From IMG/VR virus record IMGVR_UViG_3300042934_000869: a DNA stretch of 36,102 bases; one strand, written 5' to 3'. Positions 1 to 30,732 of the stretch are shown piece after piece. The stretch is from an uncultured virus (IMG/VR IMGVR_UViG_3300042934_000869). Lineage: Duplodnaviria; Heunggongvirae; Uroviricota; Caudoviricetes. The notes beneath the pieces were generated by a model. It saw only the letters and a list, made by a program, of their open reading frames with translations, was not told where the DNA came from and searched no databases. Positions within the stretch are counted from its first letter, which is position 1, and each line of letters starts with the position of its first letter. The position numbers and the translations under genes were made by a program.

Positions 1-1427
1 TGGTGCTCTTCATACGCCCATAAAAAGAATTTGCTCATATCTACTGTACTAACTGTAGCTATGTTATTTAGTTGATTCTTAACTACTTGCGATATACTTA
101 AGAAACTAAATTCAGGTTTTGATTTTATAGATTCATATATTTCATCATTACTATATAATTGTCTGCTATACTCTTGAGAAGCTCCCTTTATTAAGGCACT
201 TGTTATATCATAGCATTCTAAACAATCATCTAGACTAATAAATCTATCTATATAAATGTTAGTTCTGAATATGTCTGTTGGTATATCGAATATGTTTATT
301 TTTTTAGAATTACAATAAGATATTAAATTTCTTAAAGATACCAGACCGTCTAATAATACCATAAATTTGTTTCTGTTCTCTTTATCGTATATAGCTTTGT
401 CTCCTTCTTTTAATGAAAATAGAGATCCTTTGTTTTTAGATGATCTACTGCCTCCATCTATTATCCATATTGTTTCATATATGTTTCTTATAAGTTCTGG
501 TGTTAGTATAGAATCTATTTGTTTATATAGCTCTATGCTAATTTCGTTCCTTATTCGATACGTTCCAATTCTGTATTCTGTTTCATATAAAGATTCCGGT
601 CTTGATACTTTTATTGGTATAAAGAACTCATTCTCATAAAGAAACCTTTCTGCTTGTTTAGTATGCGTGGTTGGATTAAATTTATTCTGAATCCTATCTT
701 TTAGAGTGTCTAGCTTAGACGTAACTTTGTATATTTTATAATTAGATACTAAATCCATATACACTGTTCCATCTGTTCTACTGTTAGCACTAAATAGTAA
801 TTTACTGGATTCATAAATCTGTTTAATATCCTTCTTAAAATCAAAAGTAGCTTGTGTCTCTATAACTGACATTTCGCTCATAATTTCAAGACCTATTTCT
901 CCATCTCCACCCCTAGTCAAAAGACCTTTTTCATTTATTAATTTACCTAAGTCTTGTCTTCTAGACTGTATAAAAAATACGAAGGATTGCCTTATAAACC
1001 CAATTGGATTAAAAGAACTATTTAGGTCGTATTTACTTTTAGAGTATAAAGAGAATCTTTCACTAAATTCATTTATGACTTCGTTTATATCATATTTAGC
1101 ATTCTTTAAATTATACTCTTTCCTTATTATTGGATTATATACTTTCTCTTTTATATAGTTTAAACTTAAGTAGTCTTCAAATAATTTTTCAATTCCATAT
1201 TTAAGTATGTACTCTTTTACCTTATATAGGAATCTATTTATGTCATTTCTATATCCATGAGTAGTTAAGAACTTCTTTAACTGCTCGAACCCATCTTCAT
1301 CAGATTTGAATGTTTCTGTAATTAACCTATCAAAAATTTTACTACAGCGTTCTTCATCTAGTAAAATCTCTGAAGCCATCTTTAGTTCTTGAACTCTAAT
1401 TTCACCTCTAAGTTCTCTCAATAACAT
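1..1427 (-). CDS. Hypothetical protein, >475 aa, runs off the left edge (absent from the ORF track)
   Basis: Manual translation from ATG at 1427 (GGAGGTGA RBS upstream): MLLRELRGEIRVQELKMASEILLDEERCSKIFD...FFLWAYEEH, with no stop before position 1. No family recognised. Confidence 0.8.
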   Translation of the reverse strand, partial: MLLRELRGEIRVQELKMASEILLDEERCSKIFDRLITETFKSDEDGFEQLKKFLTTHGYRNDINRFLYKVKEYILKYGIEKLFEDYLSLNYIKEKVYNPIIRKEYNLKNAKYDINEVINEFSERFSLYSKSKYDLNSSFNPIGFIRQSFVFFIQSRRQDLGKLINEKGLLTRGGDGEIGLEIMSEMSVIETQATFDFKKDIKQIYESSKLLFSANSRTDGTVYMDLVSNYKIYKVTSKLDTLKDRIQNKFNPTTHTKQAERFLYENEFFIPIKVSRPESLYETEYRIGTYRIRNEISIELYKQIDSILTPELIRNIYETIWIIDGGSRSSKNKGSLFSLKEGDKAIYDKENRNKFMVLLDGLVSLRNLISYCNSKKINIFDIPTDIFRTNIYIDRFISLDDCLECYDITSALIKGASQEYSRQLYSNDEIYESIKSKPEFSFLSISQVVKNQLNNIATVSTVDMSKFFLWAYEEH

Positions 1428-1432
1428 TTATA

Positions 1433-1951
1433 TCACCTCCCTATCAACATAGTAGTTACTAGGTTGATAACATAACAGTAAGTAACTATTAGTAGACCTT
1501 TTTGTACCACTGACCTTTGTGTTCTTAAAGGTCTAAAGCACATTGCTATAAAAGACATTATAGCTAATGCTATTAAGCGTAATATCCATATAATTAAATT
1601 CTGTATGAGTATTAACAGCTCTTCTAGTATTTTAGCTATAATTCCTTTTATAGAATAAAACTTTATATTTTTCTTATTATCTTTGCCATATTCCACATTC
1701 CAAAGACCAGCTTTATTACTTTTCTTTTTATTACAATCTGGACATATCGCAACACAATTAAACACTCGGTTTATACCAAACCATTTAGATACAGGGAATA
1801 TATGGTCTACTTCCATATTATGTACTGTTAGAGGTTTTATGCATTGGGAACAAAAATAGTATCTATTTAGAATACCTCTATTGTGTTTAAGATATTCTCC
1901 TCTGGCATCAAACTTTTCCCTTTTCATCCTTGAATAGGATTTGTAGCCCAA
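1433..1951 (-). CDS. HNH endonuclease-family protein with C-terminal hydrophobic (putative TM) helices
   Basis: CSQC...EVDHIFP...NCVAICPDCNKKK is the zinc-binding HNH signature. Two hydrophobic stretches in the last ~65 aa. TTG start with GGGGTGA RBS. Confidence 0.85.
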   Translation of the reverse strand: MGYKSYSRMKREKFDARGEYLKHNRGILNRYYFCSQCIKPLTVHNMEVDHIFPVSKWFGINRVFNCVAICPDCNKKKSNKAGLWNVEYGKDNKKNIKFYSIKGIIAKILEELLILIQNLIIWILRLIALAIMSFIAMCFRPLRTQRSVVQKGLLIVTYCYVINLVTTMLIGR

Positions 1952-2005
1952 AGTTTATCACCCCTTCTCCCCCTGAAAGTAATAACAGTCAGTAGCCTAG
2001 CATTG

Positions 2006-5000
2006 CTAGAAACTACTTGACTCTCTTACTTTATTATAATCCCTTTCTAAATCTTCTTGGGGATTAATATTGTTATTATCTTCTTCTATTATTAGCTCTT
2101 CGTCTGCTGTTATATTTGTAAAAGCTGAACTTTCTTCCAACTTTGATTCCTCACCTTCGAGATTATCAAATAAATCAAAATTAAGAGATTCAAAATTATT
2201 TAGATTCTCTAGGTTATTGAAATCTAATTCGTTATTACTTAATATACTAGACGTAGAACTGTTTGCTACTTCTCCTTCTAGTGCTATCTCTTTTAGGCTT
2301 GAAATTTTATTTATATATTTTGGTGTATTTATTCTTTTAGTTGCTTTAGTATGAGTATTTTCTCCTATCATCATTTGTGATAATGCACCCATTCTTTTTG
2401 ATCTTTGCCTGTCTGGTATTAGTGCTATATCTGCTATATTTCCTGCTACATTAGTGTATGCTAGGTTAGATAGGAATCCTCCTAATTTATTAACAACATC
2501 TTCTGTTTTCTCAGTCTTTTGATAGTAAGTTACATCAGCATTATCCTTTAGTATTTCTTGTAGGAAATAGCTACCTCCTGATTCATATCTCTCATCATTA
2601 GATTCTGTAACTCTTACTAAAGATGTTTGAACCCTTACTATGACTTCAAAATTCCTTACCGAGATTGTTATGTTGTTTGTAGAGAACATGTCATAAAACA
2701 CTTGTAATAAAGCTATTTGTCTCTCTTTTATAGATTCTTGAGAGCTGTCATTTCTCTTTACAGAATTAACATCTATAACTCCATTAGTAAGGAATTGTCC
2801 TCTTTCTACATACTCTCCATCTTGGATTATTACTGCGTCTTTAGGTACTTTATACTTATCATCTGATTTACCATTTAGGTTGTATATCATACAATCTTCT
2901 TTACCCATATCCTTTACTCTGAAGAAACCAGAATGATAAGCTGTTATTGCTGTTCTTTGTCTCTTAGGGAATGAGCCCTTTATATAAGCTTTGAATGTTT
3001 CAACACCAGATGACGATGAATCAGACTTTCCTCCATTGTTAACACTGTCTAGATTTAATTGTGTTGCAGTTTCTCCTATTGACTGAGAAGCACTTATTCC
3101 TATTTCTTCTCCAACTCTTGGGTACTTATGTCTCTCTGCTTTTACACCATAGCACTTAGCACAAACTCCTCCTATACTATTACAGTCTAGCATAAGTCTT
3201 ATGTTTACTTTAGTTAAGTTATTACTCTCTATCTCTTTTATAGTTTTGTTACTTACTATGGAATTCTCAAGATAGGGTAAATCGTAACCTACTCTATTCA
3301 GTATAAGTCCTTTAAACAATGGGTCTAGTTTATATTTAATATTTACTATTCCATCGTCTAGTATTACTTTTCTTATCTTTGCTTTTCTTATATAGTATAT
3401 TACTAAACTATCAACTATATTTCCTGATATGCTCATATACTTTTGTAAGTTCTCATCACTAGAGTGTATAGTCTTACCTATTAAATCTGCTATGTCTATG
3501 TCCTGACCATCTTTCTTTACTGATAGTAGTTCTGTACTGTATCTTACATCTATTAGATTATCAAGTTTACCACAATCATGCTCAACTATTTTAAAATTGC
3601 TTGTAGTAAATACAGAGCTTCTAGTTAACTCTCCTGCATCTGCTGTATCATTCTGAACTTTAGAGAAACCAACTCTTGTACCGTAAGATATAAGTATTTG
3701 GTCGAATGAGCTTAACCCTCTAGAGTAGTTAGATAATATAGGTGTCTCTAATTCGTCATTATTACTTCTAGATACTATACCTATAATTCCGCAAGATTGC
3801 ATCAACTGTGATAGATTACCTCTAGCGCCGGAATCCATTATAATGAATAAATTATTATTTCTGTCATAGTAACTTAATAAACCTTTTTTAATATAATCTG
3901 TCATATACTTATAGATTTTAAATGAAGATGTTTTTCTATCTTCGTCTGTTATTAGTCCTAACTCAAAGAAATCATTTATTTCTTTTACTATAGCTTCCGA
4001 TTTAGAAATCATAGAATCTATCTCTGGGTGTTCTATATAGTCGTCTGGGTGTAAAGTAATTCCAGACCTATCACAAGCACTTACTCCAAAGATTAACATT
4101 TTATCTAGGTATTCACATACTTTCTTGTTACTGCATTTTTCCATTAAGTAGTAGCATATTTCTTGCATACTAAAAGTTTGTAGTGGTACTCTTCCAGTCT
4201 CTTTATCAACTTTACCTTTAGGGTCTTTATTCTTTTTTATCAATCCATCGAATGCTAGATTTTTATAGTTTGTTTTATCTATGAAATCTAGTCCCAGTGG
4301 GTTTGTAAATTCATTATTTGTAAATCCATCAGGTAATAATGAGTTGAATAATATCCTACCTGCTGTAGATAAATACTTTTCACCATTAGAATGTTTATAA
4401 CATATTAAATCATATCTTTCTATATTTTTATATAATATGTCAGAATCTAATGTTTCTAAGTTATCATATAATACTATATTGTTCTCTGAGTATTTTTCAG
4501 TATCTTTATACCATGTTTTATTTTCATGCAACATAGTACTTAAATAAATACCTAATAGAATATCTTGCTTAGGTATCAATATAAAACTATCATCTTTAGT
4601 ATTTAACATTTCTGAGTAAGTAGAGATTTTTTCTAGCAATTCAGCTTCAGTCTCTGGATCTAAAGGAAATGCTCCGTACATTTGGTCCCCATCAAAATCT
4701 GCATTATATGCATCACATGTTAATGGATGTAACTGTATAGCTTGTCCTTTAACTACTTTTACTTTAAATGCTCTACATCCTAATCTGTGTAATGTTGGTT
4801 GTCTTCCTAGTATTATGACTTTGGATTCTATATACTCTATTAGCATCTCAGTTATCAGTCTTAGATGTGATTTAGATTCTTCTATTGAACCCAAGCATAA
4901 CAATCCTCCAACTTTCGCATAATCCTCTGTTACTATAGCGTCTAATAATGCAGATACATTATCATCACTTCTAGAACCGTTTTCAAGTATTGTATATGCT

Positions 5001-8000
5001 TTTGTTAATTTTGGTTTTATGAAATCAGATAGACAATTTACACAGTAAGAAAAAGGTATTCCAGCTTGTTCTAACGTTATAAGACCTGCTTCTGCAGGTA
5101 CAATAGTACCTCTGAATGACCTTGATATTATTTTAGTCATTGCATTATCTCTGATAGCACCGTCTGAATTTTCTGCTCTTTTACCTGTAAAGTATGTAAG
5201 TATGGTTCTAACTTTCTTTTCTTTTCCATACTCGTGTGATTCGTCATATCCTATAAATCCTGCTATACTGTTAAATATTTCTGTAGATTTATTTATATTA
5301 TTTACTTTTACTGAATTTATTATTCTTCTATAGTATAGGTCAAAGTCACTAACTCGATTCATCATACTTAATCTATATGTTCTAGGTAGTATTGGGAAAT
5401 GGGAGATTATGAAATCTTTGAACTCCATCTCTTCTTTTTTAAGCATTTCTATCATTGAATACAACTGCTCTTCTTTGTATATATCGTCTCCCCAGTGCTC
5501 TCTAGATTCTTTCATTTTAGCTATTGAGCTAGAATAGAAATTATATGAATCTTCTAATTTACATACTTTAAATAAGTGAACAACCGATGGCATTCCTGAT
5601 TTGAATTCATAACCTTTAATATCTCTAAGTTCTGATATATTAGTTAGCTTAGTTACTATAGCATTTTCTCCACTTACATCTACATACGCTTTTCCTAATA
5701 TTATATCTCTTAAGAATCTAGCGTTTAATGGCTCTGGCTTGTTTAATACATATTCTCCTTTACTCTTTTCTTTAAGTACTCTAGCTATTAATAGTTTACC
5801 TAATCTACTCTTGTAAATCCATGTGGGGTGTATAATCTCACATTTTAATTCCATATATCCCCATCTTTGTCTTACCTTAAATAATTTATTTGGATCATCT
5901 GTTGTTCCAAATATAAGATGGTCATGTAAACTCTCTTTGTTATTTTCTATAGGTCTTTCTGCAAATGAACATATATCAGAATCTGTAAGTATCTTCATCT
6001 TATACCCGCCATTTTCCTCATCATTTACTATATCAGTACCTAGCATTCTGGATATAGCTAGTGCGTAAGCATCATTATGATTTTCAGCATTATCTACAAT
6101 TGATCCATCAAATTCTCTATCTCCACCTTTTGATCTATTCACTATGAATTTTTTACTTACTAGATCGTCAGACAGTACAGACATTATTTCTTGTAATCCT
6201 CTAGTACATCCTGCTGAGATAAATGCCCAAGTCTCCATCTCTCCAAATGATTGTCCTCCACCTCTCTTTTTACCTTTTACTGGTTGTAGAGTTGTTGTAC
6301 TAATATTTGTTATTAGATTTGTACTTGCCGACTTAGAACTAGATAAATGTTTTAGCTTTTGGTAGTACATTACTCCTACAGTTGTAGGTCTGTCGAATAG
6401 TGCTCCTGTTCTTCCGTCTACTAAATATTCTGGTTTTGTATCTGTTAATTCAGTATATTTAGCTACTATCTCTTTTGAGTCTGGGTGATAAGGACTTAGT
6501 ACTACTCTCTTATCAGCTCCTAATTTAGTTGCTGCAAATGCTATAAGAGCATGGTAAAACTGAGCTACATTCATTCTTGAAGGCACTCCTAGTGGATTTA
6601 TTTCAAGGTCTAAAGGTTCTCCTGTTGATTGTATATATGGCATATGTGACTCTGGTACTATCTTAGCTACTACACCTTTATTACCATAGTCTCCTGTCAT
6701 CTTATCTCCTACGTCTATTTCTTTTATAGTTGCTATATAAACAGTTGCTATAGTATCATTATTAGATAATGTTGCTAGTATTACCTCTCCTTCTGTTACT
6801 ACATCTAATTTAATAGAACTGTCTTTTATACCAACTTCTCCCTTTACATATTTAGCTATTACTACAGATTTAGGCTTTAGATACGTGCCTACTTGTGGTA
6901 AACCCTCTTTAGTAAAGTCAGGTATGTATGATAGGCATCCGAACGTTTCTACTTCGTTACTATTTTCATCTTCTGATTTCTTTAGTTCATACCTTATCTC
7001 TTTGATGTATATATGAGCTAATTTATTAGTACCTAAAAGACCTCCCGATATTGTCATTCCATCATCTAGACAGGAGGACATCCATGTTTTAACCCCTACT
7101 TTTAAATTTACTCCTGTTGCTAGGTCTACACAAAAATCATTATTTGGGTCTACCTTCATGTGTCCTGTTTCTAGATATTTATCTACATCATATTTTCTAA
7201 TGTCTAGACTATTATCATACGCTACTATGTCATCTCCTTGATAAACTAAATTCCTAGTAGGTCTTATATTGTATTGTGTTAGAGAATCATCTGTGGTTCT
7301 TCTACAGAATGGAAGAATTCTTTCTACAGTTAATGTTTCTTCATCTCTTCCTAAGTCTAATTCGAATATTAATTTTCTATATCCAGGTTCGGATGTTACA
7401 GTGCTTACTAACTTTATAGGTCTATTAATAAAGTTCTCAAACTCTATATGAGATACTATATTTGAATTATTTATATAGTATAAACTTAGTATATCCTTAG
7501 CTGTCTCTATTCCAGGCTGTAGTAAACTTATAACACCTGTTGAAAATATAGGTCTTTCTGCACGTAAAGTTATAACTGCTTGTTTACGTTGACCGTCTGA
7601 CATTGTAGTTCTTTTACCAGCTTGGAACTCTCCCATAGGTATTAATGCTGATGGTAAACTTAAATTGTTTAAGTTAGAATACTCTATATACTGTAATTTG
7701 GATGGGTGAACTTTTATAATTCTTCCATTGTAATGACACGAAACTAGGTCACTACTTAAGTCACAATTCCAAGCTCCTATATAGCTATTTAGAATTTCAT
7801 ATGATTCTAACAGTACTGGTTCTTCTCCTAGAACTTTACAATTTTCTACTTTCATGAATTTACTTCTTATAGTTCCATCTTCTGCTTCTTCTGACATTAA
7901 GGTTCTATAATGAACTCTTCCTATCTTCTTAGACTCTGGCTGATGAAATGGGTCATATATTCCGTACTCTGAAGATTTTACTGTAATTAATCCATCATTA

Positions 8001-9244
8001 GATCTTCCTGAATAGTCAGACGCTATTTTACTGTTTTTAGCTAATACTGATACTATATTAGTTGTCTCTGATGGTTGCGACATTACTGGGTCTTCTTTTA
8101 TCTTACTTATTAAACTCTCTATATCTAGTGTTGGTATATCAATTAATGAAACATCAGTCTCTATACCTCCTGATATAAATGCATTTGATACGTAATTATT
8201 TATTATAAATAAATTATTCTTTATAGTCTCTAAAACTGTATCTTTATAAGTTACAATCTTTCTGTTATATAATTCGTATCTCTCATCCATAGAAGGGTAT
8301 CCATCTAATGTCAAAGCGAACATATTAAATATTGTGAATAACTCATTCTCGGATAAATCTTCTTCATCCACCAAAGGGTATTTCTTCAATTCATAAACTT
8401 TACTATTATAATAAACCATTAGTGTGTCTATACCAGAACTATCTATATCTTTTAATATTTCTTCAGTCAAAGTAGTTCCTGATTTATATGATAGTATATC
8501 TCTAGCTAATTCTTTATGAAGTGCTCTGGATAAGAAAGACATCTCTCTTTCTATTCTTGTTCTTGAGGCTCCTATATTCATCATCTTTTTAGAATAGAAT
8601 CTTCTCATTAACTCCTTATATTGAAATTCTGCTCCTAGATTATTTGAGGAACTTTTTCCTCCACCTTTACCTTCTCTTATAGCCTCTAGTACAGCTCTAA
8701 TGCATTCCTCTCTAGACGGTTCCTCTATAAGTGTAGATATTATGTATCTATTTTTCATACCTAACTTTAGAGCAAGTTCGTCAAAAGATTTCCCAGTAAG
8801 GGCTTTCAAAAATACTCCACCATTTATCTTACGCTTATTAGAACCTATCTTTATAAATATTTCTCCGTATGAACCTGCCATAGTTAACTTAGAACCATGA
8901 GATGGTATCATCTCCATTATCAGATGTTTATTGCTTTTTGTTAAGCACCAACCAGGAGCTCTTTTATCTACTCCCATCATTGAATAGAATGTTCCATTTA
9001 TTTTATATCCTAAGTAAGTTTCTGCTGGTACATGTAACACAGATACCGGCATTTTCTGCCATTGTCCTGTTATTAAATTTCTGATTTTTACCATTACTGA
9101 GACAGGTAAATATACTGTACTAGATGACTCTGGTGTTTCTACTGAGTCTATTAAATCATATGTCACAGAATAAAATTCTGTACTTGTTCCACAATTTTCA
9201 ATAAATGATCTAAGAGTATTCTTTAGATCTATATACACACTCAT
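2006..9244 (-). CDS. rpoBC: Fused DNA-directed RNA polymerase beta-beta' (RpoB-RpoC-like single chain), highly divergent
   Basis: Beta motifs GDKMTGDYGNKGVV, NPLGVPSRMN, VGVMYYQKLKHL, GGQSFGEMETWA, LQEIMSVLSDD. Beta' motifs RQPTLHRLG, catalytic YNADFDGDQM (NADFDGD at 4685-4705), DSGARG, bridge helix TADAGELTR, GVCAKCYG, QSIGETATQL. One uninterrupted frame; junction near 6004-6025. Confidence 0.97.
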   Translation of the reverse strand: MSVYIDLKNTLRSFIENCGTSTEFYSVTYDLIDSVETPESSSTVYLPVSVMVKIRNLITGQWQKMPVSVLHVPAETYLGYKINGTFYSMMGVDKRAPGWCLTKSNKHLIMEMIPSHGSKLTMAGSYGEIFIKIGSNKRKINGGVFLKALTGKSFDELALKLGMKNRYIISTLIEEPSREECIRAVLEAIREGKGGGKSSSNNLGAEFQYKELMRRFYSKKMMNIGASRTRIEREMSFLSRALHKELARDILSYKSGTTLTEEILKDIDSSGIDTLMVYYNSKVYELKKYPLVDEEDLSENELFTIFNMFALTLDGYPSMDERYELYNRKIVTYKDTVLETIKNNLFIINNYVSNAFISGGIETDVSLIDIPTLDIESLISKIKEDPVMSQPSETTNIVSVLAKNSKIASDYSGRSNDGLITVKSSEYGIYDPFHQPESKKIGRVHYRTLMSEEAEDGTIRSKFMKVENCKVLGEEPVLLESYEILNSYIGAWNCDLSSDLVSCHYNGRIIKVHPSKLQYIEYSNLNNLSLPSALIPMGEFQAGKRTTMSDGQRKQAVITLRAERPIFSTGVISLLQPGIETAKDILSLYYINNSNIVSHIEFENFINRPIKLVSTVTSEPGYRKLIFELDLGRDEETLTVERILPFCRRTTDDSLTQYNIRPTRNLVYQGDDIVAYDNSLDIRKYDVDKYLETGHMKVDPNNDFCVDLATGVNLKVGVKTWMSSCLDDGMTISGGLLGTNKLAHIYIKEIRYELKKSEDENSNEVETFGCLSYIPDFTKEGLPQVGTYLKPKSVVIAKYVKGEVGIKDSSIKLDVVTEGEVILATLSNNDTIATVYIATIKEIDVGDKMTGDYGNKGVVAKIVPESHMPYIQSTGEPLDLEINPLGVPSRMNVAQFYHALIAFAATKLGADKRVVLSPYHPDSKEIVAKYTELTDTKPEYLVDGRTGALFDRPTTVGVMYYQKLKHLSSSKSASTNLITNISTTTLQPVKGKKRGGGQSFGEMETWAFISAGCTRGLQEIMSVLSDDLVSKKFIVNRSKGGDREFDGSIVDNAENHNDAYALAISRMLGTDIVNDEENGGYKMKILTDSDICSFAERPIENNKESLHDHLIFGTTDDPNKLFKVRQRWGYMELKCEIIHPTWIYKSRLGKLLIARVLKEKSKGEYVLNKPEPLNARFLRDIILGKAYVDVSGENAIVTKLTNISELRDIKGYEFKSGMPSVVHLFKVCKLEDSYNFYSSSIAKMKESREHWGDDIYKEEQLYSMIEMLKKEEMEFKDFIISHFPILPRTYRLSMMNRVSDFDLYYRRIINSVKVNNINKSTEIFNSIAGFIGYDESHEYGKEKKVRTILTYFTGKRAENSDGAIRDNAMTKIISRSFRGTIVPAEAGLITLEQAGIPFSYCVNCLSDFIKPKLTKAYTILENGSRSDDNVSALLDAIVTEDYAKVGGLLCLGSIEESKSHLRLITEMLIEYIESKVIILGRQPTLHRLGCRAFKVKVVKGQAIQLHPLTCDAYNADFDGDQMYGAFPLDPETEAELLEKISTYSEMLNTKDDSFILIPKQDILLGIYLSTMLHENKTWYKDTEKYSENNIVLYDNLETLDSDILYKNIERYDLICYKHSNGEKYLSTAGRILFNSLLPDGFTNNEFTNPLGLDFIDKTNYKNLAFDGLIKKNKDPKGKVDKETGRVPLQTFSMQEICYYLMEKCSNKKVCEYLDKMLIFGVSACDRSGITLHPDDYIEHPEIDSMISKSEAIVKEINDFFELGLITDEDRKTSSFKIYKYMTDYIKKGLLSYYDRNNNLFIIMDSGARGNLSQLMQSCGIIGIVSRSNNDELETPILSNYSRGLSSFDQILISYGTRVGFSKVQNDTADAGELTRSSVFTTSNFKIVEHDCGKLDNLIDVRYSTELLSVKKDGQDIDIADLIGKTIHSSDENLQKYMSISGNIVDSLVIYYIRKAKIRKVILDDGIVNIKYKLDPLFKGLILNRVGYDLPYLENSIVSNKTIKEIESNNLTKVNIRLMLDCNSIGGVCAKCYGVKAERHKYPRVGEEIGISASQSIGETATQLNLDSVNNGGKSDSSSSGVETFKAYIKGSFPKRQRTAITAYHSGFFRVKDMGKEDCMIYNLNGKSDDKYKVPKDAVIIQDGEYVERGQFLTNGVIDVNSVKRNDSSQESIKERQIALLQVFYDMFSTNNITISVRNFEVIVRVQTSLVRVTESNDERYESGGSYFLQEILKDNADVTYYQKTEKTEDVVNKLGGFLSNLAYTNVAGNIADIALIPDRQRSKRMGALSQMMIGENTHTKATKRINTPKYINKISSLKEIALEGEVANSSTSSILSNNELDFNNLENLNNFESLNFDLFDNLEGEESKLEESSAFTNITADEELIIEEDNNNINPQEDLERDYNKVRESSSF

Positions 9245-9489
9245 TTACTGACCCCCTTAAAGTAAAGCTCAAATATATTTCCATAATAATGTTCTAGTAT
9301 ATTTACTATTCTCGGAAATAGCTTTGGGTATTCTTTCTCCAATTTGTTATCTACTATATAATGAAACATTCCTAAAATTTCTGATTCTCTTACTATGGAT
9401 TGTTTATTAGAACTTATTGAAGTTTCTGAAATTAGAACTCTAGACTCATCTGGAGTTACCCATTGATTTTTTCTACTGTTATTTATCAT
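9241..9489 (-). CDS. Hypothetical protein (82 aa), translationally coupled to the RNAP gene
   Basis: ATGA overlap with the RNAP start. GGAGG RBS. Confidence 0.7.
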   Translation of the reverse strand: MINNSRKNQWVTPDESRVLISETSISSNKQSIVRESEILGMFHYIVDNKLEKEYPKLFPRIVNILEHYYGNIFELYFKGVSK

Positions 9490-9745
9490 TTGGAGTAACC
9501 TCCTTTATACTTCCATTTTCTGTTCTTAACTGTATAAAGTACTCAGTATTAGAAACTTCATCTATTTCTTTCTTTCCTATTCTTGCTATTAGTATTTGTT
9601 CTTTTCCTAAAGATTCTAAAACTAACTTTCTTATTTTATTAGAAGATATTATTAATTTAAAATCATCATCTGAACACAGATATGACCCTTCAAAGAATAC
9701 TTCTGCTGATGTAACCCCTTCTTTTGTAATATAGTAACTAATCAT
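9479..9745 (-). CDS. Hypothetical protein (~88 aa)
   Basis: Track gives a TTG start at 9754; the ATG at 9745 follows an AAGGAG RBS and is preferred. Overlaps both neighbours. Confidence 0.7.
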   Translation of the reverse strand: MISYYITKEGVTSAEVFFEGSYLCSDDDFKLIISSNKIRKLVLESLGKEQILIARIGKKEIDEVSNTEYFIQLRTENGSIKEVTPNDK

Positions 9746-9905
9746 TTGTGTCAACTCCTTTGCTGAATATTCTTGATTCTTCTAGATCGAATTTCTTTAA
9801 TTTGTATAGAGTTATACTGTAATCATTAGTTATTTTTATTTTTTGTACTTCTTCTATGTTGTTGTCACATTTTGGAAGCTTCTTAGCGTTGCCCGATATT
9901 ATCAT
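9738..9905 (-). CDS. Small hypothetical protein (55 aa; absent from the ORF track)
   Basis: AGAGGTG RBS, then MIISGNAKKLPKCDNNIEEVQKIKITNDYSITLYKLKKFDLEESRIFSKGVDTND*. Fills the gap exactly and overlaps both neighbours. Confidence 0.7.
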   Translation of the reverse strand: MIISGNAKKLPKCDNNIEEVQKIKITNDYSITLYKLKKFDLEESRIFSKGVDTND

Positions 9906-11064
9906 TTTCCACACCTCTTTTATTACTATTATATAACTCTTCTAGTTCCTTGTTTGTTATTATACCAACTCTCCATAATTCAGATAGAGAATGTTTTAAC
10001 ACTATATCATGAGTATTCTCTCTTGTATAAAATTGCGTATCTCCTGAATATGTTAGGTCTGCATATCTAACTACATAATTTACTAGATTTTCTTTACTGA
10101 ATGATTTTATAAAATCTACTATGAAATCCCTTACTACGTACATTTGTTCTAAAGTATAATGTGTAATATATTCGAACTTCTTGTAAACGCTATCAGTAAT
10201 CATTTCCATTGGGTCTGATTTTTCATTTAAATCTTTTAAATAATTTCTGCAACTAAATTTTATATTATTAATACTATCTTTATCTAATCCTTCTTCTTTA
10301 TCTATAGAATCTATTATATATTCTACTACAGTCCAAAATTTAGGACTACCATTTGGGAGATAGTATTCTTCTAATATCTTTGCTCTGTACTTCAGAATGT
10401 AATACTCTTGATAGTAATTATTGTTCTTAAAGGATTCACTTGTAAAATAATTACTATCTTTCATAGAGTGGTTTACAAACGGTGGTCTATAATAATACAT
10501 CCTATTTTCCTCTAATAGCTTATAGTATATTTCTAAATATTCTCTAAGTATGTCTAGTGTCTCTTCATACATTATACTCCTTCTTAGACAGTTTAATATA
10601 TTCTTTTTAAGATAATAGATAGATATGTGTAATTCATTAGACTCTGTTTCAGTTTTTAATTCTTTGCATCTGTTATAGCATTGTAGTAAAGATGCATAAG
10701 CTACCTTTTCAGAAGACATTTTTACAATTGACTCTGGATCATCTAGTATCATTAAACTTTCGCATAAACTTCTAACTTCTAGTATATCTTCTAACTTTAC
10801 ATTGGACAGTATATTATTTCCTTTTCCTGAGTATAGGTTGAAGTATCTAACGGTTCTGTAAAAGTTGTTTATTATAGGTTTATTTATTACTGACTGAAGA
10901 TTAACTCTTAAAGCATCTGCTATTCTATTACTTATCCTATTGTTATCATATGAGATACGTATACGTGTATCAACTCTATATTTATAATAACCATATAATG
11001 GATTCATTATATCTAAAGTGTCTAAGAACTCTATATCCTTTAAGATTAATTCGTCTACTGCCAA
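9883..11064 (-). CDS. Hypothetical protein (393 aa), Tyr-rich, probably alpha-helical
   Basis: Long ORF with TTG start and GGAGGT RBS. No motif recognised. Confidence 0.8.
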   Translation of the reverse strand: MAVDELILKDIEFLDTLDIMNPLYGYYKYRVDTRIRISYDNNRISNRIADALRVNLQSVINKPIINNFYRTVRYFNLYSGKGNNILSNVKLEDILEVRSLCESLMILDDPESIVKMSSEKVAYASLLQCYNRCKELKTETESNELHISIYYLKKNILNCLRRSIMYEETLDILREYLEIYYKLLEENRMYYYRPPFVNHSMKDSNYFTSESFKNNNYYQEYYILKYRAKILEEYYLPNGSPKFWTVVEYIIDSIDKEEGLDKDSINNIKFSCRNYLKDLNEKSDPMEMITDSVYKKFEYITHYTLEQMYVVRDFIVDFIKSFSKENLVNYVVRYADLTYSGDTQFYTRENTHDIVLKHSLSELWRVGIITNKELEELYNSNKRGVENDNIGQR

Positions 11065-11103
11065 AATATTACCTCCATTCTTAATTTAATTATGATAAAG
11101 TAG

Positions 11104-12351
11104 TTACTGGAAGTTTGATAGCTTCCTTAAACTAGAATCTTCTCCATTGAGTAATTTTCTTAGTCTTTCACCAAATATAGGTTTTGCTATTGCTCCAGAA
11201 TCTCTTTCGTAATAAATTCTAGAACCCTTTGTTACATTGTTATTTACTATATAGCTTGGGTTATAGCATGTTATTCGTTTCTGTGTTATACCACCATCTA
11301 CTATCATAGGTTCTATTTCTATAACGAAAGAGGCATTTACTGATTGTTGCTCCATCACTATATCTTTTACTATACCTACTTGATATTCGAAAGCCCATTG
11401 TTCAAATTTTAAAGCCATGTTCCTTGTACTGTACTGTCCACTTATTTTACCTACTATCTCTCTACTATTTAATTCTACAACTGCTCCGTCTGAAGGGAAT
11501 CCAGCTTTTTTACATTCATAGAATATATAATCCATTTTCTCTTTTAACCAAATACAGAAGTCATTAAAGTCTTTAGGTACTTCTTCGGCTTTAATTAAAA
11601 TACTTGGTGGAGTTTCAAATCCTAAATCTCTCAATCCTTTGAATGTTCCGGATACAGTATCGCTTAGACCATCTGCATTAAAGGCTAGGTAATGTAGGTA
11701 GTTATAGTAATAATCATCTATTGTAACTCTTAACATCGATAAAGCTGCTGACCTTTCACTAGTAAATTTATCGAATTGATTCTTTGGTATTTCTTTAAAG
11801 TGTTCAGTTTCTGTAACTCCCTCTCCGTATACAACTAATTCATTTTTTCCTGAATTTATTTTTAATGGAATGATTTTAGACATATTAGAAGTTACATCGA
11901 AAGCTTCTCCATCTCTACCTCTAGTCATAGATATTGAAAATTCATCTGCTACATAACCCAATCTTAGATTTACTCCATTTATTTTAGCTGACATAAACTT
12001 ATCTTCCTCTGGAGTTTCCATAAATCTTTTATGTGCTTCATGATAATTTTCTATACTCTCTATAGACATAGATTTATCTTCTCTAAGTATTTCTGAGTAT
12101 TTAGAGCTAGCTCCTAGTTTATAAATGTATGAAGTTAGATTAAATTCTTTTAGTAACTCTATAGGAACATCATCATCATCATAAGACTGATTTACAATGG
12201 GAGTGGCGTTAAACTTATTCATCGTAGTATCTAGAGTCCTGTAAGATTCATCTGAGATTAGAGAGTCACCGCATCTATAAATATGTCTTGCTAATATGTA
12301 TAAATCTACTGCTCTCTTATCTTTTATTAACTTACTAACTATATCTTGCAT
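11104..12351 (-). CDS. NAD-dependent DNA ligase-like protein, minimal (Ia + adenylation + OB domains only)
   Basis: Ia-like YRCGDSLISDESY, motif I SAKING, MTRGRDG..DVTSN, VYGE, SDGAVVELN, MALKF, OB-fold EPMIVDGG..ITCYN. Ends before the zinc finger/HhH/BRCT domains of LigA. Confidence 0.85.
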   Translation of the reverse strand: MQDIVSKLIKDKRAVDLYILARHIYRCGDSLISDESYRTLDTTMNKFNATPIVNQSYDDDDVPIELLKEFNLTSYIYKLGASSKYSEILREDKSMSIESIENYHEAHKRFMETPEEDKFMSAKINGVNLRLGYVADEFSISMTRGRDGEAFDVTSNMSKIIPLKINSGKNELVVYGEGVTETEHFKEIPKNQFDKFTSERSAALSMLRVTIDDYYYNYLHYLAFNADGLSDTVSGTFKGLRDLGFETPPSILIKAEEVPKDFNDFCIWLKEKMDYIFYECKKAGFPSDGAVVELNSREIVGKISGQYSTRNMALKFEQWAFEYQVGIVKDIVMEQQSVNASFVIEIEPMIVDGGITQKRITCYNPSYIVNNNVTKGSRIYYERDSGAIAKPIFGERLRKLLNGEDSSLRKLSNFQ

Positions 12352-12926
12352 AGAACTTTTTCACTCCTTGTCAGTTTATTTAAGTATTGTATAAATTCAT
12401 TAACTTCATTATCTTCTGTATCATATTTACATTTTTCTTTTATATTACATACTATAGGTTCCTGAAATATTCCATTAACAGTATAGTGAATTACTAATGC
12501 TATCTTAGGACTAAAATATATTTCTTTCGACACTATCACTGTATGAATAAATTTTTGACTATACTGATTTATAGCCTCTAAAAAAGCTCCTCTATATAAT
12601 TCTACAAACTGTCTGAACTTAGTCTGTACTTTATCTAAATATTCATCTGACTCATAATACGATTTTAAGCTATCATATGTTTTTAGATTATGAATTACTT
12701 TATCTCGTAAACTTGGTTTATATCCATTTCCTATACATATAAACTCTGAACTTCTATTCATTACAAATATTTCTGATTCATTAAAAAGAAATAGACCTGT
12801 TTTGCAAAGATTTTCATTATCTATGAAAATTATATAATATGCGTTCAAATCTCCATCTATTATCTTTCTTTGTACTACAGACTTAACTCCATAACTCTTT
12901 ATACATGAGTTTATGAAATCTTTCAT
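12339..12926 (-). CDS. Hypothetical protein (195 aa)
   Basis: AGGAGG RBS. Overlaps the ligase start. Confidence 0.75.
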   Translation of the reverse strand: MKDFINSCIKSYGVKSVVQRKIIDGDLNAYYIIFIDNENLCKTGLFLFNESEIFVMNRSSEFICIGNGYKPSLRDKVIHNLKTYDSLKSYYESDEYLDKVQTKFRQFVELYRGAFLEAINQYSQKFIHTVIVSKEIYFSPKIALVIHYTVNGIFQEPIVCNIKEKCKYDTEDNEVNEFIQYLNKLTRSEKVLCKI

Positions 12927-12951
12927 ATTCTCTACCTCCTAAATAAATATA

Positions 12952-12975
12952 GAGAGGCTGTTCAAACAGCCCCTC
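12952..12975 (-). terminator. Probable intrinsic terminator after the DUF3892-like gene
   Basis: Minus strand GAGGGGCTGT-TTGA-ACAGCCTCTC followed by TATATTTATTT. Confidence 0.65.
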
Positions 12976-12994
12976 ATCAATTTTAATCTTCCTA

Positions 12995-13378
12995 CTAGAA
13001 TTTAGGCAACTCTTGTAAATTGTTGCTATCTTTTCCGTCTGGGATTCCTCTTAGATATTCTTCTCCGTACTTAGATTCTCCTACAACATATCCTTGAAGA
13101 ACACCTTCTTCACAAAGTTGAACTGCTCTTCTTTTTGATATAGTAGTACCGTCATCTAATTTGTATAGAGATATTTCTGAACCTTCCATATGCACTGCAA
13201 CCACTTGTTTAGGACTTCCTTGAGACACATACTCTTCAACAGAAACTGTGTCGAAATCTAAAGTCTCATTTCTTCCTTGAATTGATTGAGTTTGTTGCAT
13301 GTTTTGGAAATTTTCATTTCCTTGCATATTTCCTGTTCCTTGAGAATTTTGAATACCTTTGTTTATTTCGTTGTTCAT
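12995..13378 (-). CDS. DUF3892-like protein with a Q/N-rich N-terminal extension
   Basis: C-terminal YKLDDG...EYLRGIPDGKDSNNLQELPKF matches the recalled DUF3892 pattern (YLR..PD....NNL..LP.F). Confidence 0.75.
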   Translation of the reverse strand: MNNEINKGIQNSQGTGNMQGNENFQNMQQTQSIQGRNETLDFDTVSVEEYVSQGSPKQVVAVHMEGSEISLYKLDDGTTISKRRAVQLCEEGVLQGYVVGESKYGEEYLRGIPDGKDSNNLQELPKF

Positions 13379-13426
13379 ATAAACAACCTCCTTAGTAAAA
13401 TAGATTTCCTCTCACCCATTTTAATA

Positions 13427-13520
13427 AGGTTTGTTGTTGTACAATCAGTACATTATAACAACAACCTAGACTAATTAGTCTAGTGGATTATAACCATCTA
13501 GATTATAATTCATTAGATTA
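13427..13520. repeat. Cluster of inverted and direct repeats
   Basis: Imperfect IR 13427-13467, perfect 18-bp palindrome CTAGACTAATTAGTCTAG at 13466-13483, then three GATTA(T)AA-like direct repeats. Confidence 0.7.
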
Positions 13521-13526
13521 ATTTTA

Positions 13527-13745
13527 GCTTGGAGGACTAACCTCCAAGCCTTGAAGTGGTTTAATGTGTGAAAATCGGATAACTAAATATAATATGTGGT
13601 GACCTATTGAACGCTTTGTCAGTGCATCATATTGGGGGACGCACTTGATACTATTTCTACATTAAATTTGTATAAATCTGTTTCAAGAAAAGGAGTCTAT
13701 TGTACTAAACCCTTAACTTTCTATGTTCTAGTTATCCTTAGTACT
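13527..13745 (-). ncRNA. Candidate structured small RNA
   Basis: Starts just after promoter-like motif copy 1 and has no credible ORF. Contains stem AGTGCGTC/GATGCACT with a C-rich loop, a long-range GGATAACTA/TAGTTATCC pairing, and a terminal 9-bp GC hairpin at 13527-13549. Confidence 0.4.
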
Positions 13746-13789
13746 TCACTATATTATAAAAGAGTAAATACAGATTCTAGGGTTGAAAA
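13746..13789 (-). promoter_or_regulatory. Bipartite promoter-like motif, copy 1
   Basis: TTTTCAACCC-N20-TTATAATATAGTGA on the minus strand; same spacing as the copies at 19444 and 30689. Confidence 0.7.
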
Positions 13790-13796
13790 CTTAGAT

Positions 13797-14462
13797 TTAG
13801 TTGAAAGAATTACTATCTTCTATACTATCTTTATTAGAATTTACATAGTATATCTTGTTATAATTCTTCTCTAACTCTACTTTAATTTTCTCAGCAACAC
13901 TATTTATATCTACTGGATTGTTATCTATAAACATGTGTATCATTTCTGGCAAAACCTCTTTATCAGCTATATACATTTTGGTCTTACTGATATTACTTAA
14001 ATCATTTTTCTTTTCTCCAGAAAATACATGTATCCTACCATCTTCTCCTGTACCAATTAGTACAGGTACATAGTGTCCTAGTTTAGGTTTGTAGTGTATC
14101 TCTAAGTCTTCACCTAATAAGGCAGTTCCTATTACCTCTTTGAATGTATATTTTATTCCTTTAGTTTTTATGAACTCAAATACTATACATGCAAATAATC
14201 CTACTCCTATTCTGTATAGTAAATTAAGTGGTGAGAAAAATGCAACTGCACAAAAAATCAACACTATAATTCCTATTTCTAATTTATGATTTCTGGAGAT
14301 TTTGTAAACACCTTTCATCTCTCTATCTATTAGATTCGAAGCTTCAACTGCTGTGTGTTTAACACTTTTTAATATTACTTTTTCATCGTTGTAGAAGATA
14401 TTACTTTTTAATTTCTTAACACTATACTCTATAATCTTAGGTTTCACTTGTTTTAGTTTCAT
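13797..14462 (-). CDS. Hypothetical membrane protein (2 TM helices)
   Basis: Hydrophobic IGIIVLIFCAVAFF and LLYRIGVGLFACIVF segments. Overlaps the upstream gene. Confidence 0.75.
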   Translation of the reverse strand: MKLKQVKPKIIEYSVKKLKSNIFYNDEKVILKSVKHTAVEASNLIDREMKGVYKISRNHKLEIGIIVLIFCAVAFFSPLNLLYRIGVGLFACIVFEFIKTKGIKYTFKEVIGTALLGEDLEIHYKPKLGHYVPVLIGTGEDGRIHVFSGEKKNDLSNISKTKMYIADKEVLPEMIHMFIDNNPVDINSVAEKIKVELEKNYNKIYYVNSNKDSIEDSNSFN

Positions 14463-15105
14463 TTGTGAATTCCTCCTCAGACTCTTCCACTAAATCAAAT
14501 CCATTAATGTTATATCTTTCTCTTATTTTATTATATATAATAGGTATTAGAGAATCCACATTTTGATTGTCAAAGTTAGATAGGTCTATTTTAACTGAGT
14601 TACCTTCTAATTTTACTTCTATCTGATCCTCTGAAGTCTTTATATCTAATACTTCTATTGTTACTCCATCTATGTAGAAACTATCTTTACTTTCCTTACT
14701 AGGTAAGCTTATTTCTAGATTATTATTAGTTCTACTTATTGATACATTATTTGGTAGCAGTGGATTACTACTATCCTTTAGTTTAAATATTATTGTTCCC
14801 TTCGATACTCTTACCGAAGCTTCGCTTACAGATAAGTCTCTCTTTATTTCTGATAAACTACATTTTATAAATTCTGTATCTTGACTATTTTCAAACCCCT
14901 TTTCAATATTATCAAACAAGAATTTATTATTCTCTGCTACTTTTAGCTTACTGCCTTTTGAAAATTCAAAATAGTAGTTATTCCCTTTTTGAACAATATT
15001 AGTTACATTTCTAAATCTTGACTGATACATATACATTGTTATGAAGTGCCAACCTATAGATACAGCTATTATTAGTGACACTGTAATAAGTGCTAATTTT
15101 TTCAT
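14437..15105 (-). CDS. Hypothetical membrane-anchored or secreted protein
   Basis: MKK followed by a hydrophobic N-terminal helix. GAGGAG RBS. Confidence 0.75.
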   Translation of the reverse strand: MKKLALITVSLIIAVSIGWHFITMYMYQSRFRNVTNIVQKGNNYYFEFSKGSKLKVAENNKFLFDNIEKGFENSQDTEFIKCSLSEIKRDLSVSEASVRVSKGTIIFKLKDSSNPLLPNNVSISRTNNNLEISLPSKESKDSFYIDGVTIEVLDIKTSEDQIEVKLEGNSVKIDLSNFDNQNVDSLIPIIYNKIRERYNINGFDLVEESEEEFTNETKTSET

Positions 15106-15131
15106 TTAAACTTTACTCCTCTCTAATACTA

Positions 15132-15193
15132 AAGTATTATAAAACTAACTTCTATGAATTAACTTTATAATACTTGGTGGGATTTCTCCCACC
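15132..15193 (-). terminator. GC hairpin plus adjacent AT-rich inverted repeat
   Basis: GGTGGGA-N4-TCCCACC at 15176-15193, just past the stop at 15201, abutting a 12-bp IR AAGTATTATAAA/TTTATAATACTT at 15132-15175. Confidence 0.55.
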
Positions 15194-15200
15194 TTGTATT

Positions 15201-18542: not shown

Positions 18543-18564
18543 TAAACCCTCCCCTTTTCAGTTA

Positions 18565-19410
18565 CTAATCTACTTTAGCCTTTCCTATATATACTGTAGT
18601 TTTATTATTGTCTCCATTGTAATATGCTCTAGCATACAAATAATGAGAAGTACCTAATACTGAAGCTATTTGAGAAGAAGATGCTTTTCCACCTATATCT
18701 ACTTTTTTAACTTCTATATTAATAAATCCTACCTGATACTCTACTCTGTATGGTGTGAATTTTAAAGACGATATCTTGTTTGATGCAGTTCCTGCATCTA
18801 TAGAGCCTGAGCTGAATTGACTCATTATACCATTTAATTTATTGAATACATCAGCAGTCATTACACAATAGTTACTATTCTCATCAGTGTTATTTGTGTA
18901 ATTGGCATACTTGCTTTTCATAGCTTCACTTGATGCACTATCTAACCATTCGCTTGGTTGTTTAGGTTGCTCAACTGGTGCTGGTTGTGGTGTAGGTTGA
19001 GGCGTTGGTTGAGGCGTTGGTTGGGTAGGTTGTGGAGTTGGTTGTGGGTTAGAAGGTTTGCTTGGATTATTTACTGGAGTTGAATTTCCAGGATTATCTT
19101 TAGCATCATCTTTCTTAGGTTCTCCATAATTTACATTATCTAAAACATTTTCCACCTTAGATTCTTCTACAACCTTACTATCTTCTGGAGCTTTTTCTAT
19201 GTCAGAGCCATCGCTCTCAATTACTGTATCAACTACTTCTTTACCGTCATTTACTGGAGCTACGTATACATCTTTCACATTACTTCTGTTTATCATAATG
19301 TATACTGCGATTCCTCCTACTACTATTACTACTGTTCCTACACTAGCTATTGCTATTTTAGCCGCTTTTGACATTCCCTTTATTGTTTTTATTATTTTAT
19401 CAAATTTCAT
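18565..19410 (-). CDS. Membrane-anchored protein with a Pro/Gln/Thr-rich linker and C-terminal domain
   Basis: Basic N-terminus, one TM helix, acidic spacer, (PQPT)n linker. Confidence 0.8.
   Translation of the reverse strand: MKFDKIIKTIKGMSKAAKIAIASVGTVVIVVGGIAVYIMINRSNVKDVYVAPVNDGKEVVDTVIESDGSDIEKAPEDSKVVEESKVENVLDNVNYGEPKKDDAKDNPGNSTPVNNPSKPSNPQPTPQPTQPTPQPTPQPTPQPAPVEQPKQPSEWLDSASSEAMKSKYANYTNNTDENSNYCVMTADVFNKLNGIMSQFSSGSIDAGTASNKISSLKFTPYRVEYQVGFINIEVKKVDIGGKASSSQIASVLGTSHYLYARAYYNGDNNKTTVYIGKAKVD
18953..19050 (-). repeat. Coding tandem repeat (PQPT)n
   Basis: NPQPTPQPTQPTPQPTPQPTPQPAP; 12-nt unit GGTTGAGGCGTT duplicated on the plus strand. Confidence 0.8.
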
Positions 19411-19443
19411 AATTATTTCCCCCTAATTTCTATTATTTTTATT

Positions 19444-19487
19444 TCACTATTATATACTTATTTGTTAGTACGACCTAGGGCTGTAAT
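19444..19487 (-). promoter_or_regulatory. Bipartite promoter-like motif, copy 2
   Basis: ATTACAGCCC-N20-GTATATAATAGTGA, about 33 nt upstream of the start codon at 19410. Confidence 0.65.
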
Positions 19488-30688: not shown

Positions 30689-30732
30689 TCACTATAGTAT
30701 AACATAATTATTCTATAATTCGGGGTTGAAAA
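30689..30732 (-). promoter_or_regulatory. Bipartite promoter-like motif, copy 3
   Basis: TTTTCAACCC-N20-TTATACTATAGTGA. Confidence 0.7.

Follow-up and report, generated by a model that had tools for sequence, protein, structure and literature searches.

A predicted single-chain RNA polymerase from an uncultured virus record has lost or trimmed the main sigma70-docking modules

Single-chain RNA polymerases (RNAPs) of mobile elements, the NCgl1702-like enzymes, reportedly go back to Iyer, Koonin and Aravind in 2003. Both these and the YonO-like enzymes are described in PMC7824862 as wholly lacking the flap (the SBHM insert). Also close to the enzyme presented here are the non-virion RNAPs (nvRNAPs) of jumbo phages. 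PMC7618050 gives the zinc-binding domain as a feature common to all multisubunit RNAPs and the nvRNAP of phage AR9 as being without it; it also reports that the AR9 enzyme uses a factor of its own, gp226, which occupies the sigma position, as does gp68 of phiKZ. We have analysed a stretch of 36,102 bp (~30% G+C; “the window” in what follows means this whole stretch) from the uncultured virus record IMGVR_UViG_3300042934_000869, in which the minus strand holds every long open reading frame (ORF). One of these, P0001, is a single ORF of 2412 residues (Table 1) predicted to carry the two large subunits of a bacterial-type RNAP, beta and beta', in one chain. The main modules by which cellular enzymes dock sigma70 are missing from it or cut short.

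The assignment of P0001 rests on three comparisons. Its Pfam matches run in the order Rpb2_6 and Rpb2_7 (the C-terminal two thirds of beta) and then Rpb1_2, Rpb1_3, Rpb1_4 and Rpb1_5 (beta' domains 2–5). The top sequence matches in the PDB are bacterial beta' chains (E 8e-74), and tblastn against plasmid records finds rpoB–rpoC of Bacillus and Listeria at 25–26% identity across 70–73% of the protein. As judged from its sequence, then, P0001 is a bacterial-type beta-beta' fusion, and a strongly diverged one. Searched by tblastn, phage and plasmid records gave cellular rpoB/rpoC only (24–32% identity), and DNA nearly identical to the window was found in neither set. Pfam gave no match in P0001 to Rpb1_1 (beta' domain 1) or to beta domains 1–3; Rpb1_1 (PF04997) is matched in none of the 39 rows formed by P0001 and its 38 relatives, against nearly all of 81 other rows.

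The two-barrel catalytic core is present: none of the 39 rows departs from NADFDGD in beta' or from the GDK..GNKG lysines in beta. The second zinc site of beta', which we take to correspond to C814, C888, C895 and C898 in E. coli numbering, is equally well kept (Table 1). The alignment shows that the bridge helix is retained in the family, as are the rudder (13–18 of 21 residues) and the flap body (76–97 of 108 residues in 38 of the 39 rows, 69 in P0039). In the trigger loop, the equivalent of E. coli R933 is replaced in every row and that of H936 is asparagine in 37 of 39; the second trigger helix is strongly diverged. P0001 ends in a low-complexity tail of 132 residues rich in E, N and S (aa 2281–2412, window 2006–2404, minus strand), which has no counterpart in beta' of E. 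coli or B. subtilis. Since the ORFs of the relatives are 2356–2893 residues long and NADFDGD, GDK..GNKG and the cysteines of the second zinc site are invariant, we conclude that function is under selection. The ORF most likely encodes a working single-chain bacterial-type RNAP; a pseudogene is ruled out by the long intact ORFs and the invariant catalytic residues in 39 members.

The initial annotation, based on an alignment by eye with E. coli, had claimed that the beta flap-tip helix and the beta' zipper and four-cysteine zinc-binding domain are absent, and that the lid and the clamp coiled coil are shortened. We aligned the 39 family members by MAFFT with rpoB/rpoC of E. coli K-12 and B. subtilis and with 10 cellular fused beta-beta' proteins, giving 12 cellular rows, and defined the segments by E. 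coli numbering. Every module loss appears as a clean gap flanked on both sides by conserved motifs. Between GK(V/Y) and (V/I)KDSS the flap tip has about 19–20 residues fewer than in E. coli; the segment equivalent to beta 891–912 holds 3–16 residues in the 39 rows (eight or fewer in 30 of them) against 22 in E. coli, and the pairwise HMMER alignment of the flap arm stops at KGE. The zipper (beta' 35–50), with a gap of 11 residues between S(W/F)S and IFG, is reduced to 3–6 residues in all 39 rows from 16 in E. coli. From IFG to R(M/W)G(H/Y)(I/M)EL the zinc-binding domain comprises 35 residues with four cysteines in E. coli (closing motif RMGHIEL) and 13 with none in P0001 (RWGYMEL), about 22 residues being missing. 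Over the whole family the segment (beta' 60–95) spans 4–14 residues against 36 and is free of cysteine in 38 of 39 rows, with a single cysteine in the other.

The two remaining modules are shortened rather than lost. In the lid (beta' 250–264) a gap of 5 residues sits between (V/I)LP and SD(L/F); the segment has 10 residues in the 25 closest members against 15 in E. coli, 12–15 in a further 13 and none in one. The clamp helices (beta' 265–309) have 24–38 residues in the family, 33 of them in P0001, against 45 in E. coli, and the span of clamp helices plus rudder, from YRR(V/I)IN to GK..G.(F/I)R, is 43 residues in P0001 against 58. Thus the flap tip, the zipper/zinc-binding domain and the clamp are trimmed in 39 of 39 members and the lid in 25, whereas none of the 12 cellular rows is trimmed, all being of full length for each of these segments.

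An AlphaFold2 model of aa 640–1839, built on the family alignment, gave a mean predicted local distance difference test (pLDDT) of 84.3 and a predicted template modelling score (pTM) of 0.78, and Firmicute beta' chains rank first in its Foldseek search. In the model the flap ends in a beta-hairpin (aa 798–802 and 805–808, model strands 159–163 and 166–169) with a two-residue turn and without a helix. Of the two clamp helices, one has 14 residues (aa 1300–1313) and the other 12 (aa 1320–1331), and short helices (pLDDT 83–94) occupy the position of the zinc ribbon. With phmmer, aa 1040–1480 alone found no PDB chain at E ≤ 0.001, so that support for the beta' N-terminal alignment comes from the anchor motifs, the model and the multiple alignment rather than from pairwise similarity. 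With the second zinc site and the core kept, the first zinc site has been lost specifically and not through general decay. A proper alignment and a predicted structure had been named beforehand as the check on the four claims, and both show the modules missing or shortened; the lid alone needs narrowing, to the 25 closest members, when the claim is extended from P0001 to the family. The peptides had been placed correctly, the zipper/zinc segment starting at 5846 where ~5847 had been given.

The 38 relatives are 27–48% identical and all come from metagenome assemblies. Their database names include “hypothetical protein [Clostridium paraputrificum]” (WP_156561823.1, which UniRef carries as “Bifunctional ... 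beta-beta'”), a C. paraputrificum metagenome-assembled genome and Eubacterium sp. Their contigs cluster at about 163–172 kb and 185–193 kb, with C. paraputrificum isolates carrying WP_156561823.1 on contigs of the latter class, and the contig from which the window was taken measures 160,102 bp. A look-up of sequencing runs for it listed a single DNA run, a soil metagenome that is probably its source, and no RNA run. The RNAP most likely belongs to an extrachromosomal element of ~160 kb in low-GC Firmicutes. A family-specific DNA pattern found 26 loci in metagenome contigs and none in viral contigs. Six of the metagenome loci belong to the fused family (L159, L163, L170, L172, L179 and L182). 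The pattern GRQPTLH...NADFDGD also caught genes of giant-virus or eukaryote type unrelated to the P0001 family, and L161, L164, L167, L176, L181 and L183 were set aside as largest subunits of these types with Cys-rich N-termini; a single-protein scan of viral contigs yielded one giant-virus contig, likewise unrelated. A full-text literature search, in which work of the Aravind group was only partly covered, found no paper on the family.

A further eight loci (L160, L162, L166, L168, L169, L171, L178 and L180), on contigs of 142–193 kb, are of a split type with separate genes for beta (1239–1492 aa) and beta' (1101–1302 aa) and with NAD-ligase and Hsp70 homologues nearby. In L162 and L166, YdjM-like and other genes lie between the two. 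In the three split-type enzymes that were aligned (L160, L162 and L166), the zinc-binding domain and the flap tip are deleted, the clamp helices are short and the lid has the identical gap of 5 residues; since they share these losses the trims are, by this comparison, older than the gene fusion. In a FastTree phylogeny of beta' (53 rows, 1112 columns, with 13 fused-family, 3 split-type and 34 cellular bacterial rows), the fused and split element enzymes join with a support of 84; the 34 cellular rows together form a clade of full support to which neither belongs.

The flap-tip helix of beta is the contact for sigma region 4 and NusA, the zipper and zinc-binding domain of beta' contact sigma region 3–4 and upstream DNA, and the tip of the clamp helices contacts sigma region 2 and NusG. 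Pfam found no homologue of sigma70, alpha or omega in 35 window ORFs at E ≤ 0.001, nor with the threshold relaxed to E ≤ 0.1 in 26 orphan ORFs. When 41 window ORFs and the 20-kb flanks of the six loci of the fused family were searched with a profile built from four E. coli sigmas, no match came up. That profile is able to detect sigmas, since it matched a region-2 ORF in an unrelated locus, L184. The ORF in question (L184:8152–8460, minus strand; 102 aa, sigma70 region 2 match at E 4.7e-15) lies a few genes from a divergent beta'-like gene of 1254 aa on a metagenome contig of 48% G+C, in a different lineage that seemingly retains a sigma. Alpha and omega could be supplied to P0001 by the host. 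A co-fold of the P0001 clamp region with residues 95–215 of B. subtilis SigA scored 0.00; run without controls, it carries no weight either way.

The RNAP probably finds its promoters by a route other than sigma docking. The initial annotation had gone on to say that the enzyme does not use host sigmaA in the normal way and needs a different factor. The structural premise of that statement stood and extends to the whole family; that SigA is not used normally we infer from the trims, and we think it probable. We likewise infer that binding of SigA, NusA and NusG has been lost and that another factor exists, whichever it may be. On balance we favour the reading that P0001 forms no canonical holoenzyme with host SigA and is directed instead by a factor that the element encodes and that is not recognisably sigma-like. 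Under this proposal the lineage would have deleted the peripheral modules that hold sigma70-family and elongation factors while leaving the catalytic core whole, and the nearer half of the family would also have lost part of the lid. The RNAP would then be brought to the element's promoters by its non-sigma-looking factor, as happens in the nvRNAPs of jumbo phages, and the helical orphan encoded after the RNAP and HNH genes would be the best candidate for that factor.

This orphan, cut by the window edge (Table 1), belongs to a conserved type of 720–1200 aa that always follows RNAP–HNH; it has 61 relatives of 719–1012 aa. The order RNAP–HNH–orphan is conserved in the window, in L170 (orphan at L170:13594–15783), L172, L159 and L163. 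Its model (pLDDT 85.4) is mostly helical with a small beta-rich C-terminal domain; H703 and G706 are near-invariant. It has no Pfam match; Foldseek returned nothing from the PDB or BFVD at E ≤ 0.001, the family profile nothing below E 0.047 among PDB sequences and Atlas nothing usable. VIA-align superposed residues 187–389 on sigma domain 2 at what is the noise level for helical proteins, with 9fo6_F giving Z 5.3 (root-mean-square deviation (rmsd) 5.8, 117 residues aligned) and 3ugo_A giving Z 5.0 (rmsd 5.8, 116 aligned). The same wide search also matched these residues to 3les_A, which we take to be a scaffold built on a Thermus sigma fragment. When the 62-row orphan alignment was compared with the four E. 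coli sigmas by hhalign, the probability was 0.1%. The orphan is put forward as a candidate partner or specificity subunit, and as no more than a lead.

Of the window's 36,102 bases, just 2130 are intergenic. One bipartite motif, CA(A/G)CCC followed after 26–27 bases by TATA(A/C)TATAGTGA or a near variant, occurs at three sites, all intergenic and on the coding strand (Table 1). The three copies compare with a mean of 0.01 in 300 first-order simulations, for a pattern that was defined post hoc. Allowing 2 mismatches in the 13-mer motif gives 12 sites where 13.3 would be expected by chance, and it is the exact and bipartite forms that stand out; the same motif words are not present in L170. The bipartite motif may be a promoter of the element. 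Downstream of two of its copies, at a distance of ~100–240 nt and ahead of the next ribosome-binding site, stands a strong hairpin with a T-run (13379–13796 and 30535–30743). Examples of such hairpins with T-runs are GGGGTGTGTT...AACACACCCC TTTTT and GCTTGGAGG..CCTCCAAGC. The hairpins after the motif copies could form a short leader RNA or a read-through switch.

Upstream of the RNAP gene come, in order, genes for a DUF3892 protein, a 195-aa orphan, the adenylation protein of an NAD-ligase, a 393-aa helical orphan and orphans of 91 and 82 aa. The ATGA overlap between the 82-aa ORF and the RNAP start suggests translational coupling of the two. In L170 a small ORF without detectable similarity takes the place of the 82-aa ORF. 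L170 has the same gene order as the window, and both there and in L172 the order extends to a family-A DNA polymerase gene, lying three genes downstream. HNH homologues come after the RNAP in six related loci. The NAD-ligase ORF consists of the adenylation part only (415 aa) and is followed by the fast-evolving 393-aa orphan (both within window 9883–12351, minus strand), and a ligase paired with a protein of ~400 aa is seen also in L170, L162 and L166. In a word-indexed search the 393-aa ORF (9883–11064) found only its own sequence, its positional counterparts being 12–23% identical, and Atlas returned nothing for it at a value of at least 0.9. It was dropped as a specificity factor, as the ~400-aa protein follows the ligase in split-type elements too. 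Elsewhere upstream in the window, Pfam identifies a primase-type zinc ribbon and an Hsp70. Window 19496–28164 (minus strand) encodes a prepilin-peptidase-like protein, small pilin-sized ORFs, two ORFs of 318–387 aa, a T2SSE/VirB11-type ATPase and a ParA/AAA_31 protein, and looks like a putative Tad- or type-IV-pilus-like apparatus. With PHROG profiles, no virion gene was seen within the 36-kb window.

Table 1 Features of the P0001 locus, in window coordinates
Feature	Position	Strand	Details and basis
P0001, single-chain beta-beta' RNAP (predicted)	2006..9244	-	ORF and translation; beta-like ~aa 1–1080, beta'-like from ~aa 1081; Pfam, PDB
Flap arms joined by tight turn, tip helix deleted	6815..6856	-	AKYVKGEVGIKDSS, aa 797–810; alignment and model
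beta' N-terminus at the place of the zipper/zinc-binding domain	5846..5935	-	ESLHDH...GYMEL, aa 1104–1133; alignment and model
Lid, shortened	5342..5386	-	PRTYRLSMMNRVSDF, aa 1287–1301; 5 residues fewer than E. coli and B. subtilis
Clamp helices (coiled coil), tip removed	5264..5332	-	YRRIIN...FNSI, aa 1305–1327; alignment and model
Fusion joint	5975..6010	-	GGYKMKILTDSD; E. coli beta/beta' alignment, end of beta homology abuts start of beta' homology
beta active-site motif, kept	6674..6709	-	GDKMTGDYGNKG; alignment
Catalytic loop, kept	4679..4705	-	NADFDGDQM; N1514, D1516, D1518 and D1520 invariant in 39/39 rows
Second beta' zinc site, kept	3146..3190	-	C2021, C2028 and C2031, with C1891 (window 3572–3583); invariant in 39/39
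Trigger-loop N-arm	3029..3076	-	GETATQLNLDSVNNGG, aa 2057–2072; equivalents of E. coli R933 and H936 replaced
82-aa orphan ORF	9241..9489	-	stop overlaps RNAP start (ATGA, 9241–9244); without Pfam match
91-aa orphan ORF upstream of RNAP	9479..9754	-	position conserved in L170; phmmer E 3.2e-7 to L170:5156–5407
HNH endonuclease directly downstream of RNAP	1433..1951	-	Pfam HNH 2.3e-8; position conserved
Helical orphan, N-terminal 475 aa (cut by window edge)	3..1427	-	profile match 3.4e-126; after RNAP–HNH
Bipartite motif, copy 1	13746..13785	-	CAACCC-N26-TATAATATAGTGA; heads intergenic region before the operon ending in RNAP
Bipartite motif, copy 2	19444..19483	-	CAGCCC ... TATATAATAGTGA; intergenic
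Bipartite motif, copy 3	30689..30728	-	CAACCC ... TATACTATAGTGA; upstream of Hsp70-like gene

Several observations weigh against direction by an element-encoded factor other than sigma. The base of the clamp helices, with LYYRRIIN (LYRRVIN in E. coli; LY(Y)RR(I/V)IN), is conserved and the flap body is present, so that a reduced sigma interface, with which these parts are compatible, might persist; in E. coli, R275, E295 and A302 are of significance for sigma binding. The window covers 36 kb of a 160-kb contig, which leaves room for a sigma70-family gene in the rest of the element. The three motif sites hold TATAAT or TATACT boxes, and an extended -10 (TGTTATAAT, 13452–13460, minus strand) stands ~75 nt before the first gene of the RNAP operon, as a possible host SigA promoter for the first expression of the RNAP; SigA could read both this and the TATAAT-type motif sites. 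Sigma70-type promoter matches in window 1–20000, which we count in favour of the non-sigma factor, number 83 against 110.7 ± 10.1 in shuffles, a depletion of only about 2.7 standard deviations in a crude scan of half the window. The placing of the family outside cellular RNAPs, counted on that same side, may reflect long-branch attraction, its depth being unsafe because FastTree flagged long branches and odd amino-acid composition. The likeness of the helical orphan to sigma domain 2 is within noise by structure (Z 5.0–5.3) as by profile, and the orphan could equally be a replication protein, as it is located between the RNAP and the DNA polymerase gene.

Some of these observations would fit a polymerase that uses a co-adapted sigma70-family factor, either host SigA or one encoded elsewhere on the element, with the deletions tuning the choice of partner. 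The retained clamp-helix base and flap body, the intergenic TATAAT-containing motifs with the extended -10 and the three quarters of the contig beyond the window that was read all speak for such a factor. However, a sigma profile that worked on L184 found no homologue among the window ORFs or in the regions flanking the six fused-family loci, and all four sigma-contact modules are trimmed together in 25 of the 39 rows and three of them in every row. Moreover, the beta of Vibrio phage D69 has a flap-tip-like segment and this family is without one. We consider use of a sigma70-family factor unlikely, if worth keeping in mind.

The RNA-exit channel runs past the flap tip, the zipper, the zinc-binding domain and the lid, and NusG binds at the tip of the clamp helices. 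Since the same four modules line this channel, loss of control by NusA, NusG or hairpins is an equally valid account of the trims. The deletions might then mainly serve elongation and termination, in an enzyme that ignores NusA, NusG and hairpin pauses and perhaps intrinsic terminators. Genes of the element would be read through signals that stop the host enzyme, giving a temporal switch. In agreement with this, each of the four trimmed modules belongs either to the exit channel or to the clamp tip, a hairpin and T-run come after two of the three motif copies in the arrangement expected for a read-through switch, and R933 and H936 equivalents are replaced family-wide, so that elongation chemistry appears to have been remodelled too. 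Terminator-like sites, on the other hand, are not enriched (6 against 4.9 ± 2.6), and such a role is compatible with a loss of sigma docking rather than exclusive of it, the prediction about pausing and termination being drawn from sequence. As the main purpose of the deletions, and with the temporal switch as its consequence, we find it distinctly improbable.

That P0001 carries out specialised RNA synthesis for replication or DNA transfer (priming, or on incoming single-stranded DNA) and is not a general transcriptase, as is said to have been proposed for other mobile-element RNAPs with a single chain, could draw on its NAD-ligase, HNH and family-A DNA polymerase neighbours (the last in L170 and L172), on the secretion-ATPase and prepilin-peptidase cluster 10–19 kb away and on the altered trigger loop, but it seems very improbable for an enzyme that, unlike the minimal YonO/NCgl1702-type, keeps the full architecture (clamp, rudder, flap body, switch regions and bridge helix) on an element with a separate primase-type zinc-ribbon protein.

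The N-terminal zinc-binding domain, the flap tip and full-length clamp helices are regarded as near-universal in cellular-type RNAPs, serving as handles by which sigma, NusA and NusG take hold. With P0001 and its relatives we have a natural single-polypeptide family with a bacterial-type core, at ~26% identity to RpoB/RpoC of Bacillus and Listeria, minus exactly these handles, and it offers a ready-made test of what they are needed for. If P0001 is directed by an element-encoded factor, as we favour, the family may also lead to a new promoter-specificity factor, and it may supply a compact polymerase for work in vitro and in synthetic biology. The family further points to large elements in gut and soil Clostridia with replication and transcription machinery of their own. 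A more far-reaching proposal, which we regard as speculative and rather unlikely in full, is that the 140–190-kb Clostridia elements belong to an undescribed class of self-sufficient replicons that bring a DNA polymerase, a ligase, a chaperone and an RNAP of their own, in which the handle-less RNAP and the orphan subunit read CA(A/G)CCC...TATAGTGA promoters and pass through hairpins that stop the host enzyme. If true, bacterial mobile elements would have a third independent transcription machine, and the enzyme would be a naturally minimal single-chain RNAP.

Among known systems, cellular beta-beta' fusions (Helicobacter, Wolbachia-type, Mycoplasma suis and others) resemble P0001 in the order of beta then beta' and in length class. 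They differ in that 10 of 10 keep the full modules, have Rpb1_1 and group with cellular RNAPs in the tree. The Vibrio phage D69 group is alike in that a large phage genome (186,708 bp in D69) encodes a bacterial-type beta homologue, the D69 beta differing in its flap tip as noted above. With the NCgl1702-like RNAPs the family shares the presence of both barrels in one polypeptide and residence in mobile elements of Gram-positive bacteria. In P0001, however, the flap body is kept and the tip helix is gone, NCgl1702 being compared here by its published description; the Rpb2_6 match of P0001 spans profile positions 63–373 of 373. Because the flap body is kept, the P0001 family is not filed as NCgl1702-like.

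The jumbo-phage nvRNAPs (AR9/PBS2 and phiKZ) are likewise two-barrel bacterial-type RNAPs of mobile elements that, according to PMC7618050 and PMC7598289, work with no host sigma. AR9 is the closest precedent for the loss of the zinc-binding domain and takes its specificity, as phiKZ does, from a non-sigma-looking protein (gp226 and gp68, respectively). P0001 and its family differ from them in several ways. The beta and beta' of the nvRNAPs are in four pieces, whereas P0001 is a single chain and the related elements show a two-gene split only; P0001 matches a cellular-like PHROG profile at E 9.5e-93 against 3e-15 for the jumbo-phage RNAP profiles; the rudder, which phiKZ and AR9 lack according to PMC7618050, is kept in the P0001 family; and the 36-kb window of P0001 shows no virion gene. 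Element-encoded RNAPs shorn of cellular control surfaces are a known kind of enzyme, and the present ones occur in large Clostridial elements that form an apparently undescribed family.

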